From positions 6,279 through 70,278 of the forward strand of contig JBHLQM010000009.1 of NCBI GenBank assembly GCA_048884785.1: DNA of 64,000 nt. The letters are read 5' to 3'. A program made the translations under genes and the position numbers. Origin of the DNA: Candidatus Thorarchaeota archaeon (GTDB lineage: Archaea; Asgardarchaeota; Thorarchaeia; Thorarchaeales; Thorarchaeaceae). Below, in pieces: positions 1,648 to 61,717 of this stretch. How positions within the stretch are numbered: position 1 is the stretch's first letter; each line of letters begins with the position of its first letter. Under the pieces are notes generated by a model. It saw only the letters and a program-made list of their open reading frames with translations, did not search any database and was not told the DNA's origin.

Positions 1648-2775
1648 ATGGTAGACTGGGAAACTTGGGAAGGCGTTGTGCTTCGGAAACTCGAATTGCC
1701 AAATGGAAAGGTAGCATCCAATCGGATCATGCGGGCCGCTACTTGGATGGGACAGGCTGATGCAAATGGGATTTGTGGAAACCAGATCATCGACACATAT
1801 GGAAAGATCAGAGCTGGTATCGTAGTGACTGACTTTCAGTATGTGATGTATGAGGGACAGTCCATTCGACGGATGATTTCAAACTCAAAGCCTGCTGATG
1901 TTGAGGGTCTTAAACGTCTAGCTGACATTATTCATTCTAAAGGTAATCTAGCAGCGGCTCAATTGGTTCATTGTGGGGCCAAGAGTTATCCAAAATATGC
2001 AGGCATTGATGTGGTATTTGGACCCAGTGATATGGAAGTCCCACACCCGCGGGGTGAGATTGTTCGTGTGCAGGCAATGACTGTGGAGCATATTGAGAGA
2101 GTTACCCAGGCCTATGCAGATGCAGCGAAACGTGCAGTTGAGGCAGGATTTGATATCATTGAGCTTCATGGAGCTCATCATTATGGGCTCTGGGAATTCT
2201 TTGACCCAACATACAATCAGCGTCCAGAAAGTGATCCTTACACTGGTACTACAATCGAAGGCCGCTGTAAGGCAATGGTTGATGCCGTAAGAGCAGTCAA
2301 AAATGCGGTCGACATTCCAATCCAAGTGAAGGTGGATTCAAGGTCTAAATCAGTCAGTCCTCAGGAAGTTGGTGAATTGACAAAGAAACTGGCTGAAGCA
2401 GGAGCATATTGTGTGATTTTCAGTGGACCCAACCCAAGCCAAGATCCAAAGGACGTAGGTGAGGCATACTTCCTGGACGATGCAATGGCTATCCGTTCCA
2501 TTGCACATGATACAGGTCTCATGTTTGGATTGGTGGGTGGTATCCGGTCTCCAGAAACTGTAGTCAAGCTACTATCAGGAGATGGAAATCCTGCAAATGC
2601 GTTCGATGTAATTCAGCTGAGCCGCCCATTAATTAGTGAGCCTGCACTTCTAGACCGGTGGAAGGAAGAGGCGAAAAAGAACAAACAAGAGCCTGCGCGA
2701 TGCATATCCTGCAATAATTGTCTTTGGAATGGCTTTATAGAGCATGTGAGATGCGTTCAGTTTGAAGACGATTAA
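1648..2775 (+). CDS. NADH:flavin oxidoreductase, Old Yellow Enzyme family (TIM barrel)
   Basis: N-terminal LELPNGKVASNRIMRAA, QLVHCGAKS, and IELHGAHHYGLWEFFDP..N.R motifs are typical of OYE/NADH oxidase family proteins. Confidence 0.7.
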   Translation: MVDWETWEGVVLRKLELPNGKVASNRIMRAATWMGQADANGICGNQIIDTYGKIRAGIVVTDFQYVMYEGQSIRRMISNSKPADVEGLKRLADIIHSKGNLAAAQLVHCGAKSYPKYAGIDVVFGPSDMEVPHPRGEIVRVQAMTVEHIERVTQAYADAAKRAVEAGFDIIELHGAHHYGLWEFFDPTYNQRPESDPYTGTTIEGRCKAMVDAVRAVKNAVDIPIQVKVDSRSKSVSPQEVGELTKKLAEAGAYCVIFSGPNPSQDPKDVGEAYFLDDAMAIRSIAHDTGLMFGLVGGIRSPETVVKLLSGDGNPANAFDVIQLSRPLISEPALLDRWKEEAKKNKQEPARCISCNNCLWNGFIEHVRCVQFEDD

Positions 2776-2926
2776 TGTTGAGGATTAATGACCTGACTCT
2801 TCGGTCCCTGCAGACCCGAGAAGCATTTTTCGGATCCCATTAATCCACACCATCCATTATGAAGAACTTGTTCTGGGAACGCAAAAGAGATTAACACTCA
2901 GAATAAAGTATAGTGGGGGATACGTT

Positions 2927-3964
2927 TTGGCAAATCATCTACCGCCAAAAATAGTGAAGAGAAGGATTGCCATGGCTGCCTTCTTGGTTGTAGTGATTAT
3001 CTCTTCAGGTATTGTAGTATTTGGCGTTCTCTCAACATTGTATAATGAATCTCATGAAGCTCCGCTTCCGGGAATTCCTATAGAGAATACGGTTTTTGCA
3101 GGGCTAGCGAATGCCGCTGGAGATCCCGCATTTTTGCCTGCAGGACCGCTGATATCAAACTATGATAGTGTTACAATGAATATAACCGAGGCAATCGACC
3201 AACCGATAATCTCTCAAGAGGAAGCAGAACAGATTGGGGCCAACAGCTTCTCCCAATTTCCATATATGTCAGGTGTTACCTTGGAGCCGGATCATTTCTG
3301 GAACGAGCTACGTGATAATCCCTACTACTCGCTTCGGTATTTCGTTGGGCAGTATGAGTTCTATGCAGGTGTAAACGCCTTGACTGGACGAGTAATCGTA
3401 GTTTCACCTCACTGGTCGGTTCTCATGCAATATAATACCAGTACTGAATCAGAAGTGTTGTCCGTAGAGGAGATCCAGGAGTGCGCATACGAGTTCTTGG
3501 AGTGGAATAACTACAGCCTTTCAAGCACTGCAAGAGTTGAAACTCCTGTCATAGAGAAGGATACAATACTTACCAACTTTCCTGCATATCACTTGAAATT
3601 CTACTGTTCAGTCAATGGATGTCTTATTCCTAGCAACTACCTATCCATGCTTCTCAGTATTAAAACAGGTGTCGTGATGAGATTCATATATCACTGGAGA
3701 AATATAACGCACATCCCAGTCGAAAATGTAGTTCCTGCTTTGAACGCAGAAAATGTGGCCCGGGCGCACCTGAGTCAGAATCTTCAAGCCAGTAATTTCA
3801 CTATCATCTCCAGTAGTCTTCAATTTCGTAAAGTCACTACATGGCCTATTCTGAAGTTGCAATTGTGCTGGCTGATAGATATTCGTCACGAATTATACGG
3901 TCCCATTGTAATCAATGCTCTCAACCTAGAAGTACTTCAAGTCGGTCAAAAGGTGAATTGGTGA
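2927..3964 (+). CDS. membrane-anchored extracellular protein, possibly with PepSY-like modules
   Basis: N-terminal TM helix (AAFLVVVIISSGIVVFGVL). YEFYAGVNALTGRVIVV resembles the PepSY signature. Starts at TTG, with an alternative ATG at 2972. Confidence 0.4.
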   Translation: MANHLPPKIVKRRIAMAAFLVVVIISSGIVVFGVLSTLYNESHEAPLPGIPIENTVFAGLANAAGDPAFLPAGPLISNYDSVTMNITEAIDQPIISQEEAEQIGANSFSQFPYMSGVTLEPDHFWNELRDNPYYSLRYFVGQYEFYAGVNALTGRVIVVSPHWSVLMQYNTSTESEVLSVEEIQECAYEFLEWNNYSLSSTARVETPVIEKDTILTNFPAYHLKFYCSVNGCLIPSNYLSMLLSIKTGVVMRFIYHWRNITHIPVENVVPALNAENVARAHLSQNLQASNFTIISSSLQFRKVTTWPILKLQLCWLIDIRHELYGPIVINALNLEVLQVGQKVNW

Positions 3965-58252: not shown

Positions 58253-58329
58253 TCACGATTTCTTTTTATGGAGTGCTTGCAGCTATCTCGTGAATAACCG
58301 TGTGATAAACCCACGGGGTGAAAATAATA

Positions 58330-58710
58330 ATGTCTGATCCTGTAATGGACGCATATACACAAGCATACAATTCCTCTGGACAAATGATACAGGCGTTTGG
58401 AGTGATTCGGTCTGATGGTGCAGTATTATGGCAGAGTAATAATTGGTCACTTGAAGCAGATGCAAGGAGCCTTGTTGCTGCCGTTACGAGTCGAGCTGCC
58501 AGTGTGACTCAAAATCAGGTCAAATATAGCACAATGCGAACGAGTCCCGAAAGCCTAGTGGCTCGAAGTGTTCAGGGCAATGGTATTCTGGTCCTCGCGA
58601 AGATTGACAATGACAAGTGGGTAGTTGCCTGGGCATCACCTGATGCTGCGCCAGATGGTGTTTATGTTGATGTTGATCGGGCCGCGAAGGCCTTAAAGGG
58701 AAGAATTTAG
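58330..58710 (+). CDS. profilin-like protein 1
   Basis: 126 aa. AFGVIRSDGAVLWQS.NW.L ... VKYSTMR ... LVAR...GNGILVLAKIDNDKWVVAW ... VDRAAKALK follows the profilin fold pattern. GGGGTGA lies 8 nt upstream of the ATG. Confidence 0.65.
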   Translation: MSDPVMDAYTQAYNSSGQMIQAFGVIRSDGAVLWQSNNWSLEADARSLVAAVTSRAASVTQNQVKYSTMRTSPESLVARSVQGNGILVLAKIDNDKWVVAWASPDAAPDGVYVDVDRAAKALKGRI

Positions 58711-58815: not shown

Positions 58816-59181
58816 GTGTCAATCTCTGAAATCTGGGCAAACCTTTACTCCCACAATCCGAAGATACAGGCTTTTGCGGTTTCACAGGATGGGGAAATAG
58901 TCTGGCAAACTGACAATTGGAATCTTGTTGACACTGTAGGGGAATTGTTTGCAGCCTATGATAGAGGCGCTTCAGAAGTAAGAATTGCAAAAGTATCCTA
59001 CACCATAATGAGTGCTACTGATGAGTCGCTTGTGGCATCATCCAAAGACAAGAAGGGCCATTTTCTTATGACCAAGGCAGACAAAACAGTATGGTTTCTG
59101 GCTTGGATAACGCACGATTCTGTTCCTGAGCTTACATTAGTAGATTTGAAATATGCAGCAACTCAGCTTGCACACATATAG
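58816..59181 (+). CDS. profilin-like protein 2 (tandem paralog)
   Basis: 121 aa. EIWANLY N-terminus, AFAVSQDGEIVWQTDNWNL ... VSYTIMS ... LVASSKDKKGHFLMTKADKTVWFLAW ... YAATQLAHI. GTG start with AGGTGA upstream. Confidence 0.6.
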   Translation: MSISEIWANLYSHNPKIQAFAVSQDGEIVWQTDNWNLVDTVGELFAAYDRGASEVRIAKVSYTIMSATDESLVASSKDKKGHFLMTKADKTVWFLAWITHDSVPELTLVDLKYAATQLAHI

Positions 59182-59307: not shown

Positions 59308-59541
59308 GTGAGTATTCTTGCTTTCATTCTACTGAACGTGGAAATGGCATTTCAACGAGAAACTCTTGAAAAAGTCAGGGCTCTTGATGAAGTGATAGAG
59401 GCCCACCTAATCTTTGGAACTTACGATATTATAGTAAAGGCAGAATTCCCCACAAACCAAGAACTAAGCCTATTCGTGGTTGACAGGCTTAAGACGCTGC
59501 CAGGAGTTGGGGAAACACAGACGAATATCTGCTCGGATTAG
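59308..59541 (+). CDS. stand-alone Lrp/AsnC-type ligand-binding (RAM) domain protein
   Basis: 77 aa. AFILLNVE ... V.AL.EVIEAHLIFGTYDIIVKAEF ... L..FV...L..LPGV..TQT.I. Confidence 0.65.
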   Translation: MSILAFILLNVEMAFQRETLEKVRALDEVIEAHLIFGTYDIIVKAEFPTNQELSLFVVDRLKTLPGVGETQTNICSD

Positions 59542-59606: not shown

Positions 59607-60407
59607 CTACTTGCTTTTGAAGAGCAAATCTCTCATTCGTTTGTGAAGATCTATATACTCTGGTGAGGCCATAGCATGCATTGTCACAAGAAACTCGAAC
59701 ATATCCAGAACTTCTTTATCTGCAACATCGCTACGAATCATCTTTGCGACTTCTCCACGACCAGTAACTTCTTTCTTATAGGCCTCCACGCGGAGTTTGA
59801 CTATCTCATCTTTCTCTTTCTCCGTCAATTGAATATCAAAAGTCTTCATGAGCTTGTCGAGGTAATCAGTGCTCTTCTTGAATAGCATCTTCTCATCTGC
59901 GCCCAACATGCTAGTTACGAGGACAAAACCTTTGGCTGTTCTTCTATAATAGTGGGTTTCTCGCTTTCCTGTAATCACCTTTCCAAGTTCAATAATGTAC
60001 CCTGCTTCCATAAGTTTCGGTAGATGGTGATATACTTGATTTTTGGTGATTTCCTCTACGTCCTTATGCTCCTTTGACATCTTTACAATTTCAACAACAG
60101 AGAGAGCATTTCGCTTGACTTCACGTTGGCGAATAATAGTGTCACCGGTTTCCTTATCCTTGGTCTTCGTGGTCTTAGTGTCTTCAACACCTCTTCGTAG
60201 AATCTGAAGGATCGTCAGTCTTGCTGTGTCGTCGAGTTCTTTGGCTCGCTGCTCATCAGACACGAATTCGAATTCCACAACTGGTTTCTTTGCTTCTGGA
60301 GTCAGTATGATGCCGTCCAGAGTATCTGTGATTTCGTCAGTCATTGTATCACCCTTGTATTCAGAATATACCCATGATTGCTCTGTGCAAATCTTCCTTA
60401 ACGCCAA
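59607..60407 (-). CDS. winged-helix (ArsR-like) transcriptional regulator with an acidic N-terminus and a helical C-terminal domain
   Basis: RLTILQILR ... LSVVEIVKMS ... ITKNQVYHHLPKLMEAGYI wHTH pattern. Divergent from the micro-ORF operon. Confidence 0.55.
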   Translation of the reverse strand: MALRKICTEQSWVYSEYKGDTMTDEITDTLDGIILTPEAKKPVVEFEFVSDEQRAKELDDTARLTILQILRRGVEDTKTTKTKDKETGDTIIRQREVKRNALSVVEIVKMSKEHKDVEEITKNQVYHHLPKLMEAGYIIELGKVITGKRETHYYRRTAKGFVLVTSMLGADEKMLFKKSTDYLDKLMKTFDIQLTEKEKDEIVKLRVEAYKKEVTGRGEVAKMIRSDVADKEVLDMFEFLVTMHAMASPEYIDLHKRMRDLLFKSK

Positions 60408-60506
60408 TATAAGGTTTTTTGTGCAACCTATTTATAGACATATGGACTAATCATAATTATATTGGAATAAAAACAATTGCCATACAAATGGTTTAATTAC
60501 CAAACC

Positions 60507-60513
60507 TTTATAT
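60507..60513 (+). promoter_or_regulatory. TATA-box-like element (TTTATAT) about 35 nt upstream of micro-ORF 1
   Basis: AT-rich consensus-like box in the divergent intergenic region. The spacing fits a very short 5' UTR. Confidence 0.3.
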
Positions 60514-60546
60514 GCAAATAAGTTTACTACAAACACGTGAATAATC

Positions 60547-60654
60547 ATGGCGATAGAACACAACTCACGAACAGCAAATGAGATGAAGAACAAGAAGACA
60601 GTCCGTGGTGTTTCCACCGAGGCTATCCGATTCGCGTACACTTACTGGAGGTAA
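60547..60654 (+). CDS. micro-ORF 1 (35 aa): MAIEHNSRTANEMKNKKTVRGVSTEAIRFAYTYWR
   Basis: Manual translation. Shares RTANE with micro-ORF 3 and NKK...ST.AI....Y.R with micro-ORF 2, in both cases through synonymous codons. Confidence 0.45.
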   Translation: MAIEHNSRTANEMKNKKTVRGVSTEAIRFAYTYWR

Positions 60655-60659
60655 CCGTT

Positions 60660-60746
60660 GTGGCGCTTGCAAAAAAGAACCAGAACAAGAAGCCAACCAA
60701 ACGGATTTCAACAAGGGCTATTCAGCATTCATTTCTCTACAGGTAG
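60660..60746 (+). CDS. micro-ORF 2 (28 aa, GTG start): (M)ALAKKNQNKKPTKRISTRAIQHSFLYR
   Basis: GGAGGT lies 6 nt upstream, inside the end of micro-ORF 1. C-terminal motif is shared with micro-ORF 1. Confidence 0.4.
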   Translation: MALAKKNQNKKPTKRISTRAIQHSFLYR

Positions 60747-60752
60747 ATCGAT

Positions 60753-60866
60753 ATGAACCCCGATAGAACGGCTAATGAATCAAGAAGCCCATACGACTCA
60801 ACCTCGAAGGTGTCTAGAGGTCCTGAAATTTCAGTTGAAGAGGTGCTTATGTTAGAGGCGACATAA
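60753..60866 (+). CDS. micro-ORF 3 (37 aa): MNPDRTANESRSPYDSTSKVSRGPEISVEEVLMLEAT
   Basis: In frame with micro-ORF 2 and separated from it by TAG plus 2 codons. Followed by an oligo-T tract. Confidence 0.4.
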   Translation: MNPDRTANESRSPYDSTSKVSRGPEISVEEVLMLEAT

Positions 60867-60880
60867 GCCCCTCTTTTTTG
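60867..60880 (+). terminator. oligo-T tract (GCCCCTCTTTTTTG) directly after micro-ORF 3
   Basis: T6 run at 60874-60879, immediately downstream of the stop codon. Confidence 0.35.
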
Positions 60881-60907
60881 TTGGCATGAGTTCTGTATAT
60901 TCCATTT

Positions 60908-61717
60908 CTATTTTCTGAAGACAATCTGATAGAATGTGTCATTCATTATGTGTGTTACTTCAACATCAACAGCCTTCTCTGGGATATGTTCCAAGGGTGG
61001 TTTGGCTGCAAACAAGCTATTTGCTTCCATTATGGCTTTTCCCTCATCAGTTTCTCGTTTTCTTAGAGAAAGCCCTTCATCAATCACTATGACGAACCCT
61101 CCCTTGCGAACGATTCGAAGTATCTCATTGAACGCCCTCGGGATATCTGAGAATGTGTTGATTCCACCGCTGTGAATGGCAATGTCAAAGACATCATCGC
61201 AGTATGGAATGTTGAATACACTTCCATGAACTAGGTTTAGGTCAAGTTTCCGTTCCTTTGCTTTCCTTTGGGAAACCATGAGCATTCCCCTAGACAAATC
61301 GAGACCGTGTAAATCGAATCTGCCCATTTTGCCATCGAATACGTTTGAGATTGCCATGAAATTGGCGGCTGTTCCAACACTCACATCGATGATCTTTGCT
61401 GGGCCCTCTATAGGAATGAATTGAGCAAGCCTTTCACGTTCTTTCATTGCGTTTATCCTTAGCCAGTCATCATATTGCTTCACCAATTCATCATAGTTCT
61501 CAGCCATTTCGTCATACTCCGCAATCCACTTTCGATCCTCATCGGTGATTTCCGGATGTACTAGTGACACAATGCCATCATTGATTTTCCACGAATGCCC
61601 CTTTTCGCAGGTCAGCATTCCCTCTTCAATTTCGGCCTTTTGTGAAAAGACCTCTGATATTCGAAGAGACTTAAAGCACCGTGGGCATCTTATTGATTTT
61701 AAGAGAGGTTCCTGCAA
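60908..61717 (-). CDS. class I SAM-dependent methyltransferase with an N-terminal Trm112-like zinc ribbon
   Basis: CPRCFKSL ... LTCEKGHSWKINDGIVSLV, then a DVSVGTA SAM motif and the Methyltransf_11-like FDIAIHSGG. Confidence 0.65.
   Translation of the reverse strand: MQEPLLKSIRCPRCFKSLRISEVFSQKAEIEEGMLTCEKGHSWKINDGIVSLVHPEITDEDRKWIAEYDEMAENYDELVKQYDDWLRINAMKERERLAQFIPIEGPAKIIDVSVGTAANFMAISNVFDGKMGRFDLHGLDLSRGMLMVSQRKAKERKLDLNLVHGSVFNIPYCDDVFDIAIHSGGINTFSDIPRAFNEILRIVRKGGFVIVIDEGLSLRKRETDEGKAIMEANSLFAAKPPLEHIPEKAVDVEVTHIMNDTFYQIVFRK

Follow-up and report, generated by a model that had tools for sequence, protein, structure and literature searches.

Are three tandem open reading frames (ORFs) for peptides of 28–37 amino acids (aa), found in the genome of a Candidatus Thorarchaeota archaeon, real genes, and what could their products do? 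The ORFs, named P1, P2 and P3, lie in a stretch of 64,000 nucleotides (nt) that was analysed as a whole (the window; contig JBHLQM010000009.1 of GenBank assembly GCA_048884785.1, positions 6,279 to 70,278). They are placed between the divergent gene of a winged helix-turn-helix (wHTH) regulator and the convergent gene of a methyltransferase. An earlier reading, made from the letters of the window alone (the sequence-only reading), had described them as an unannotated operon of three related peptides. The conservation patterns in related genomes confirm P1–P3 as a protein-coding operon kept across Thorarchaeota, and by the same comparisons its products are two new microprotein families conserved across an Asgard lineage. 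Genes shorter than ~40 codons are almost invisible in Asgard genomes, which are mined for the origins of eukaryotes. Re-reading of the window sequence returned the coordinates and translations first given for the three ORFs:

60547–60654, + strand: P1, 35 aa, isoelectric point (pI) 10.2, A1-type microprotein
60660–60746, + strand: P2, 28 aa, GTG start, pI 11.8, A2-type microprotein, paralogue of P1
60753–60866, + strand: P3, 37 aa, pI 4.5, C-type microprotein

Conservation of the array across Thorarchaeota

Searching species-representative genomes with a profile of the wHTH protein yielded 75 loci, of which nearly all were labelled Thorarchaeota. Seventy of them had sufficient upstream sequence, and the array was read there by tblastn and ORF listing. 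In ~60 of the 70 loci this search of relatives, which had been proposed as a check on the reading frames, turned up the array on the upstream side of the orthologous wHTH gene and in divergent orientation. All three canonical ORFs (A1-A2-C) were present in 38 loci, giving 39 arrays together with the window. In most of the other arrays an ORF had been overlooked by the automatic pattern and was recovered by manual reading. The variants were A-C, A-A, A alone and A-A-A-C, with one to three copies of the A-type ORF.

The A1-type ORF had a modal length of 35 aa (35 aa in 33 of the 39 arrays) and ended in AIGYAYxYRR. The A2-type ORF (modal 29 aa, orthologues 26–33 aa) started with MALAK, followed by a Lys-rich stretch and ISTDAITHSYxYR. 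The C-type ORF (modal 38 aa, 34–42 aa in 38 arrays) ended in EEVLMWEAT. The gaps between the ORFs measured 0–7 nt. P2 and P3 share one frame in the window, parted by a single TAG. Between genomes the relative frames of the three ORFs vary, and therefore the array does not derive from a single broken ancestral gene. A single frameshifted or read-through gene was ruled out by the same differences.

The nearest relatives of the window locus (L085–L087, wHTH proteins 76–79% identical) all had the trio. A search anchored on the peptides gave eight further metagenomic loci, each with the trio (in L082 the contig is cut off ahead of the third ORF). In all seven whose contig extends far enough, the wHTH gene was adjacent. 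Two syntenic loci, L001 and L052, had no array beside the regulator after rearrangements. In L001 a 114-aa ORF stood in the place of the array, and a palindrome facing the wHTH gene was retained. The locus L084 carried an extra 34-codon ORF (MTDTEQRLSSKRKDMNRKLMTNETLYMEFEGGSG) before the array, at ~425–530 (250–354 of the printed segment), ending in a GGAGG that resembles a ribosome-binding site. The A1-type ORF of L084 terminated in AFMHKQV instead of YRR.

The encoded peptides

In P1 the conserved part was the C-terminal half, K-x-A-x-V-x-(S/T)T-x-A(I/L)-x-(Y/F)-A-Y-x-Y-R-R. The pattern of P2 was MALAK, a Lys-rich stretch and ISTxAIxHSYxYR. P3 was variable and hydrophilic in its N-terminal part and conserved at the C-terminus, (D/E)(V/I)L-x-(L/W)-E-A-T. 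All three were hydrophilic, with a grand average of hydropathy (GRAVY) of ~−1 and no hydrophobic stretch. The net charge was +4 to +8 for the basic peptides P1 and P2, and −3.5 for P3. AlphaFold2 (AF2) modelled P1 as a helix spanning residues 2–34 (predicted local distance difference test, pLDDT, 72); P1 is thus predicted to be a single long helix.

Two of the peptides earlier called related proved to be so. The A1 and A2 orthologue profiles aligned with a hhalign probability of 97.6% (E = 3e-12), showing that the similarity between P1 and P2 is homology; their invariant core was (S/T)T-x-A(I/L)-x3-Y-x-Y. P3, however, belonged to a separate family. The RTANE pentamer, which had been taken as a link between P1 and P3, was indeed present in both with the synonymous codons described (chance ~9e-4), but it is not a conserved feature. 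A 5-mer common to the first and last ORF occurred in only 1 of 39 arrays, and RTANE was absent from the nearest relatives L085–L087. It was rejected as a motif joining P1 and P3 and considered lineage-specific.

Tryptic peptides expected from the trio include (K)VYTTDAIGYAYIYR, QISTDAITHSYTYR and DVTVEEVLMWEAT; those expected for the window genome include GVSTEAIR and ISTR/AIQHSFLYR.

Evidence for coding

The nucleotide entropy at conserved residues was ~0.35, 0.33 and 0.95 for codon positions 1, 2 and 3 (0.34, 0.32 and 0.92 in A1), roughly threefold higher at the third position, and conserved Ala, Gly, Ser, Thr and Leu were encoded by many synonymous codons. The test of dN/dS suggested earlier was run as the ratio of non-synonymous to synonymous differences (pN/pS, with pS the synonymous term). 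It showed a coding-type pattern, with overall values of 0.56 for A1, 0.42 for A2 and 0.66 for C. Within the ORFs, the ratio was 0.37 over codons 17–33 of A1. In A2 it was 0.22 over codons 2–5 (MALAK) and 0.34 over codons 17–27. In C it was 0.75 over codons 2–25 and 0.21 over codons 32–38. The conserved cores thus had a pN/pS of 0.2–0.37 with normal pS, and selection appears to act mainly on the C-terminal halves of the peptides.

The alternative frames of A1 and C were open in just 0–2 of 38–39 loci; the probability of a random frame being open over 37 codons is 0.12. Selection on the peptides, as the sequence-only reading had argued from synonymous codons, is therefore borne out by frames kept in >50 genomes, by more synonymous than non-synonymous changes and by a Shine-Dalgarno (SD) motif at every ORF. 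That reading had also named two outcomes that would speak against it, namely frames lost in relatives and a structured non-coding RNA (ncRNA) with covariation. Neither was found, save for a covarying hairpin at the 3′ end.

Shine-Dalgarno sites and the 3′ hairpin

The translation signals and the end of the array were located as follows:

60537–60540, + strand: SD-like GTGA, 6 nt upstream of the P1 start codon
60647–60652, + strand: GGAGGT, SD of P2, 7 nt before its GTG, formed by the last Arg codon of P1 and the first base of its stop codon
60741–60744, + strand: AGGT, SD core of P3, 8 nt before its ATG, overlapping the last Arg codon and the stop codon of P2
60838–60879, + strand: terminator-like hairpin with arms of 15 nt (60838–60852 and 60861–60875) and a T6 tract at 60874–60879

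The GGAGGT before P2 and the T6 tract after P3 had both been pointed out from the sequence, and the tract was found to stand behind a hairpin. The SD sites were nearly invariant, against a background of 24% for each. All 39 arrays had GTGA(T) or GGTGA 5–6 nt ahead of the first ORF. The second ORF was preceded by GGAGGT at a distance of 7–8 nt in 38 of 39 arrays (in all 39 if a 4-nt core is accepted), and the third by AGGT at 8 nt in 36 of 39 (38 if any 4-nt core is accepted). The codons carrying these sites were fixed as well. The last Arg codon of A1 was AGG in 32 of 33 cases, and the penultimate Arg codon was AGG or CGG only. A2 ended without exception in TAC AGG (Tyr, Arg), where pS was 0. 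The terminal Arg codons, joined to the first base (T) of the stop, double as the SD of the ORF that follows, and the conservation of the "RR-stop" end is therefore largely that of a ribosome-binding site.

The stop codon of P3 (60864–60866) lies inside the 3′ arm of the hairpin, and the C-terminal codons form the 5′ arm. The hairpin was conserved in 55 loci, with 78% of cells paired versus 30–47% with a slid partner. Twenty-eight cells had changed on both sides, for example Leu CTC to CTT together with the stop TGA to TAA, and this level of covariation was reached in 0 of 500 shuffles. In six loci (L002, L004, L059 and L085–L087) the hairpin was made from other codons (GAGGCGA / TCGCCTC), and the tail (D/E)(V/I)L-x-L-E-A-T was kept with varied codons. 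This argues for selection on the peptide as well. Judging from these overlaps, some of what looks like conservation of the peptides is conservation of nucleotides, due to the SD within the C-terminal R or RR codons and to the hairpin within the P3 C-terminus. Such overlapping constraints, with an SD in Arg codons and a stop codon in a terminator hairpin, can mislead a peptide-level reading of conservation.

Promoter palindrome

Upstream of P1, the TATA-like box placed earlier at ~35 nt was recovered at 34 nt, fused to a palindrome. A second copy of the module faces the wHTH gene:

60490–60513, + strand: palindrome-TATA module of the micro-ORF operon, GGTTTaattaccAAACC, with half-sites GGTTK and MAACC and a 7-nt spacer
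60507–60513, + strand: TATA box TTTATAT, 34 nt before the P1 ATG, fused to the palindrome
60406–60428, − strand: second palindrome-TATA module, GGTTGCACAAAAAACC plus TTATATT, with a 6-nt spacer, facing the wHTH gene

With one substitution allowed, 62 of 71 loci had the module GGTTK-N7-MAACC plus TATA facing the array; 434 kb of control sequence taken from those 71 loci contained no match. On the + strand of the window, 60490–60513 was the sole such site. A generic promoter consensus was rejected as an explanation, because the module is unique in the window and absent from the control sequence. For the copy with the 6-nt spacer, 0.07 sites are expected per window under the strict pattern.

The locus L086 had a 129-aa ORF without Pfam match (1958–2347) inserted between the wHTH gene and the array. 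The palindrome-TATA promoter stayed with the array despite the inserted gene.

The palindrome is probably the operator of the divergent regulator, whose class is described below. The copy that faces the wHTH gene points to a possible autoregulation of the regulator, in this lineage only. A third group of wHTH paralogues (L063, L065 and L075) had the same module (ATGGTGTC-N-CAAACCTTTTATC) ~120–700 nt upstream of the wHTH match. There it drives the gene of a PAS-domain protein, with no micro-ORFs. The presence of the module before the PAS-domain gene suggests an operator common to the whole regulator family.

The divergent regulator and its linkage to the array

The divergent wHTH regulator of the sequence-only reading was recovered with a shorter N-terminus:

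59607–60344, − strand: wHTH transcription regulator, 245 aa from ATG 60344, PH1932/PadR-like

The mechanical ORF runs to TTG 60407. The homologues (~245 aa, starting MTDEITD), nearly all from Thorarchaeota, point to ATG 60344, which is most likely the start. With the TTG start, the gene would reach up to a few bases from its own putative operator/TATA module (60406–60428).

From the N- to the C-terminus, the protein has a beta/alpha part, a winged helix and a helical domain. A PDB profile search matched it to 1ULY (PH1932) with E = 8e-8. Its AF2 model (pLDDT 87) gave 1ULY and 2CWE as top Foldseek hits (E = 1e-9), followed by PadR (5X11, E = 7e-4), LmrR and Phr. The Pfam PadR and HTH matches were all below cutoff. 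By profile and model, the protein falls in the PH1932/PadR-like class, with a winged helix and a predicted C-terminal helical dimerisation domain. The similarity to PH1932 is one of profile and fold, with an identity of only ~20% and a TM-score of 0.46–0.58, and the protein has an extra N-terminal segment compared to PH1932, PadR and Phr. PH1932, PadR, LmrR and Phr are dimers that bind palindromic operators. We know of no ligand or target for PH1932. A full-text literature search returned no report of a micro-ORF partner for PH1932, PadR or Phr proteins.

Adjacency of the regulator and the array is by itself weak evidence of a functional link, because the whole block is syntenic in Thorarchaeota: a transporter, a DUF gene, two profilins, an AsnC-like gene, the wHTH gene, the array and the methyltransferase. 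Four loci (L068, L070, L072 and L074) had a wHTH copy only 39% identical and no syntenic neighbours, yet the same promoter module. They carried a micro-ORF pair of their own, ~200–480 nt upstream of the wHTH gene, on the opposite strand and with an SD site. The pair is formed by a 36-aa ORF (MALAKK...YRVSFRR) and a 44-aa Trp/Tyr-rich ORF (...KMLMLNSA), and a hairpin embeds the stop codon. The link between regulator and micro-ORFs therefore exceeds block synteny, and the link with the methyltransferase does not. The co-occurrence check proposed earlier thus had a divided outcome: the wHTH gene was kept with micro-ORFs, including in its divergent copies, but the methyltransferase was lost from the divergent loci. 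In these four loci the convergent neighbour resembles, by eye, a TRASH/YHS-type metal-binding protein (YYFC..C motif).

Databases, literature and expression

The trio is nearly absent from databases. A profile of the A-type peptides gave six matches among 5.8e9 proteins, all of 35 aa, four of them named "hypothetical protein" and two unnamed. Among 1.84e9 representatives it gave 16 unnamed clusters. The ORFs thus remain practically unannotated, as first described, and their assignment to no known family also held. In Pfam, P1, P2, P3 and the consensus peptides had no match at E ≤ 1, except for a Motilin_ghrelin match of P2 (E = 0.088, 13.2 bits vs. a cutoff of 23.2) which we took as noise. NCBIfam and PADLOC gave no meaningful match for the peptides, and the PDB profile search only noise (E = 9). 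At the RNA level, the best Rfam scores over the array were 18.9 and 17.5 bits vs. gathering scores of 81.9 and 45, and ARAGORN detected no tRNA or tmRNA in the region. No description of these peptides was found in the literature by full-text search.

None of the RNA runs searched contained the window genome, and four metatranscriptomes from the studies behind L016 had nothing on the array. For L080, one sediment metatranscriptome contained a contig of 157 nt, at least 99% identical and with a depth of 3.7, which mapped to 3070–3213, inside the array. The rest of the 6,063-nt locus was not covered by that metatranscriptome. The contig is suggestive of transcription of the array.

Proposed function and rival explanations

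We think it fairly probable that the locus is a self-contained Thorarchaeota module, with a palindromic promoter bound by the wHTH protein, three translationally coupled micro-ORFs, a hairpin/T-run end and peptides acting in trans. The TATA box fused to the 17-bp palindrome GGTTK-N7-MAACC would drive a transcript of ~340 nt with the three packed micro-ORFs, which would end at the conserved hairpin and T-run holding the last stop codon. Each ORF would be translated from its own SD. Because ORF2 and ORF3 each have their SD within the final Arg codon and the stop of the ORF before, we infer that their translation is coupled and roughly equimolar. The products would be a pair of basic paralogues, each probably folded as a single helix, and a third peptide with the tail (D/E)VL-x-(L/W)EAT. 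The palindrome would most likely be bound by the divergently encoded, presumably dimeric PH1932/PadR-like protein, which could be a repressor or an activator alike.

The peptides would most likely be small intracellular partners acting in trans, which may assemble into a small helical complex, bind the regulator in a feedback loop, or both. Our best guess is that they are helical microproteins working with the regulator. We favour a role in trans because of the tandem paralogy with variable copy number, the selection on the peptides at normal pS, and the divergent regulators with a micro-ORF pair of their own. Variable copy number is typical of trans-acting peptide genes. A bolder and rather doubtful proposal goes further. 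The three microproteins and the regulator would make up a circuit present throughout Thorarchaeota, in which the peptides, singly or joined in a small helical hetero-complex, would attach to the regulator or to its operator DNA and thereby control their own promoter. If true, it would be an intracellular archaeal counterpart of the bacterial regulator-peptide pairs and, for Asgard archaea, the first description of a conserved regulatory module made of microproteins.

Of the roles listed as options by the sequence-only reading, which also named small RNA- or ribosome-associated peptides, the leader-peptide and precursor ones are the less likely. It is improbable that the ORFs are cis-acting and regulatory (of leader or arrest type), with translation itself mattering and not the released peptides. 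In this reading, a ribosome at the P3 stop codon would melt the hairpin, tuning 3′-end formation, mRNA stability or antisense read-through to the methyltransferase. Such ORFs would explain why the last stop codon lies inside a conserved hairpin in both array types, and why conservation is highest in the C-terminal 10–19 residues, the part still enclosed by the ribosomal exit tunnel when translation terminates. The near-neutral N-terminal parts, in frames which nevertheless stay open, and the convergent gene within ~40 nt downstream in the window and in the divergent loci would fit as well. An attenuator, however, would have no co-directional downstream gene, the next gene being convergent in the window and in related loci, and there are no regulatory codon runs (Tyr occurs only as Y-x-Y). 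One conserved hairpin and no antiterminator pairing were seen, in a search of alternative pairings that was not exhaustive, and archaeal intrinsic termination relies on T-runs, not on hairpins. Tandem paralogues in variable number (1–3) would be unusual for leader ORFs. In addition, the MALAK N-terminus of A2 is conserved too, and the normal synonymous rates in the A cores argue against an RNA-level constraint there.

Still less probable is that the A-type ORFs encode precursors of a ribosomally synthesized and post-translationally modified peptide (RiPP) or of a peptide-derived cofactor, as PqqA and MftA are, with a Tyr-rich core modified possibly by the methyltransferase. The ORFs are indeed tiny, mostly unannotated and tandemly duplicated, with invariant Tyr, Ser and Thr near the C-terminus, and an S-adenosylmethionine (SAM) methyltransferase gene is conserved beside them, in convergent orientation, in 49 of 75 loci. 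Within ~3 kb of flank per locus, however, the conserved neighbourhood had no gene for a radical-SAM enzyme, YcaO, LanB/C, peptidase, transporter or RiPP recognition element (RRE)-type protein. The flanks encoded profilins, an AsnC-like protein, the wHTH protein, the methyltransferase and an acetyltransferase-like ORF. Moreover, the methyltransferase is absent from the divergent and several main-type loci, and the peptides are strongly hydrophilic with no recognisable division into leader and core.

The least probable explanation by far is that the ORFs are incidental to a structured ncRNA or to a longer gene in decay. The covarying 3′ hairpin and the shared frame of P2 and P3 would agree with it. 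Against it stand the third-position variation, the SD motifs, the kept ORF lengths and the closed alternative frames (0–2 of 38 for A1 and C), together with frame relations that leave no single ancestral frame and the lack of any longer homologue among the 5.8e9 or 1.84e9 proteins. We rejected the structured ncRNA on account of the Rfam scores, none above noise, and of the coding-type substitutions; the RNA-level signal was confined to the 3′ hairpin.

Several observations weigh against a module of trans-acting peptides under the wHTH regulator. The N-terminal halves of A1 and C are near neutral (pN/pS 0.75–0.82), which would also fit ORFs whose translation outweighs their product. The helix of P1 was modelled with moderate confidence from a shallow alignment. 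The palindrome overlaps the B recognition element (BRE), so its conservation could partly reflect promoter strength. The copy of the module that faces the wHTH gene was found in only 12 of 71 loci, and co-regulation is thus not general. Finally, the RNA evidence from L080 is a single unstranded contig, from a library that may contain DNA.

Comparison with known systems

The module of regulator and trans-acting peptides that we favour resembles in part the Rgg/SHP and RRNPP systems of Firmicutes. These too have very short, usually unannotated ORFs divergent from the gene of an HTH regulator, a conserved functional C-terminal end and a specific palindrome at the peptide promoter. As there, the micro-ORFs are linked to the regulator, since the array adjoins the wHTH gene in ~60 loci and divergent wHTH copies have their own pair. 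In contrast, the peptides described here are hydrophilic and basic, without signal or hydrophobic segment, and no exporter or protease is encoded nearby. Their regulator is PH1932/PadR-like and not a tetratricopeptide repeat (TPR)-HTH protein, three coupled ORFs take the place of one, and the host is archaeal.

The staphylococcal psm-alpha operon likewise has related ORFs of 20–35 codons in tandem on one short transcript, which were missed by annotation and whose products are predicted as single helices. It is directly controlled by a DNA-binding regulator. The phenol-soluble modulins (PSMs), however, are hydrophobic, amphipathic, secreted cytolysins, in contrast to peptides with a GRAVY of ~−1, and there is no sequence similarity. 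The trpL, hisL and tnaC leaders share with the array an SD-preceded short ORF that ends at or inside a hairpin with a T-run, and conserved C-terminal residues. They differ from it by a co-directional downstream gene, by a codon run, by an alternative antiterminator structure and by the bacterial transcription machinery; the array has three ORFs with paralogy and an archaeal machinery. Among archaea, sP26 and sP36 of Methanosarcina mazei are also below 50–60 aa and missed by gene callers, and they bind larger proteins. They are single ORFs with no sequence relation to the trio, which is coupled and has a dedicated putative operator and a linked regulator.

To our knowledge, Thorarchaeota have no cultured representative. 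With a dedicated cis-element, a candidate cognate regulator and three peptides that can be synthesised, the locus offers a compact module testable in vitro, and a way into the study of small-protein regulation in Asgard archaea.

Methyltransferase and other neighbours

The convergent methyltransferase with a Trm112-like ribbon, recognised earlier from the sequence, was recovered by Pfam (Ubie_methyltran / Methyltransf_11) and NCBIfam (Trm112_arch over residues 1–56, below cutoff):

60908–61717, − strand: class-I SAM methyltransferase with a Trm112-like zinc-ribbon N-terminus, convergent with the array

It was absent beside the array in the divergent wHTH/micro-ORF loci and in several main-type loci. 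A functional link between methyltransferase and array is therefore unsupported, and their proximity reflects the synteny of the block.

On the other side of the regulator, the window encoded two tandem profilin-like genes on the + strand (58318–58710 and 58816–59181), with weak matches to Pfam Profilin (E = 2e-4 and 0.012). Their order was kept in ~60 Thorarchaeota loci, one copy having 70–89% identity and the other 35–50%. Along with the taxonomy of the wHTH homologues, the two profilin genes place the window in Thorarchaeota. The nearby profilins had raised the idea that the micro-ORFs encode WH2- or thymosin-like actin-binding peptides; it was dropped, as the order of the motifs does not fit. 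Between the profilin genes and the wHTH gene, a gene at 59308–59541 (+ strand) encoded a stand-alone AsnC/Lrp ligand-binding (RAM) domain of 77 aa with no HTH, which was found in 33 of 75 loci. In L087 a gene for an IS605 OrfB / Cas12f-like TnpB (2519–3418) was inserted beside the profilin genes.

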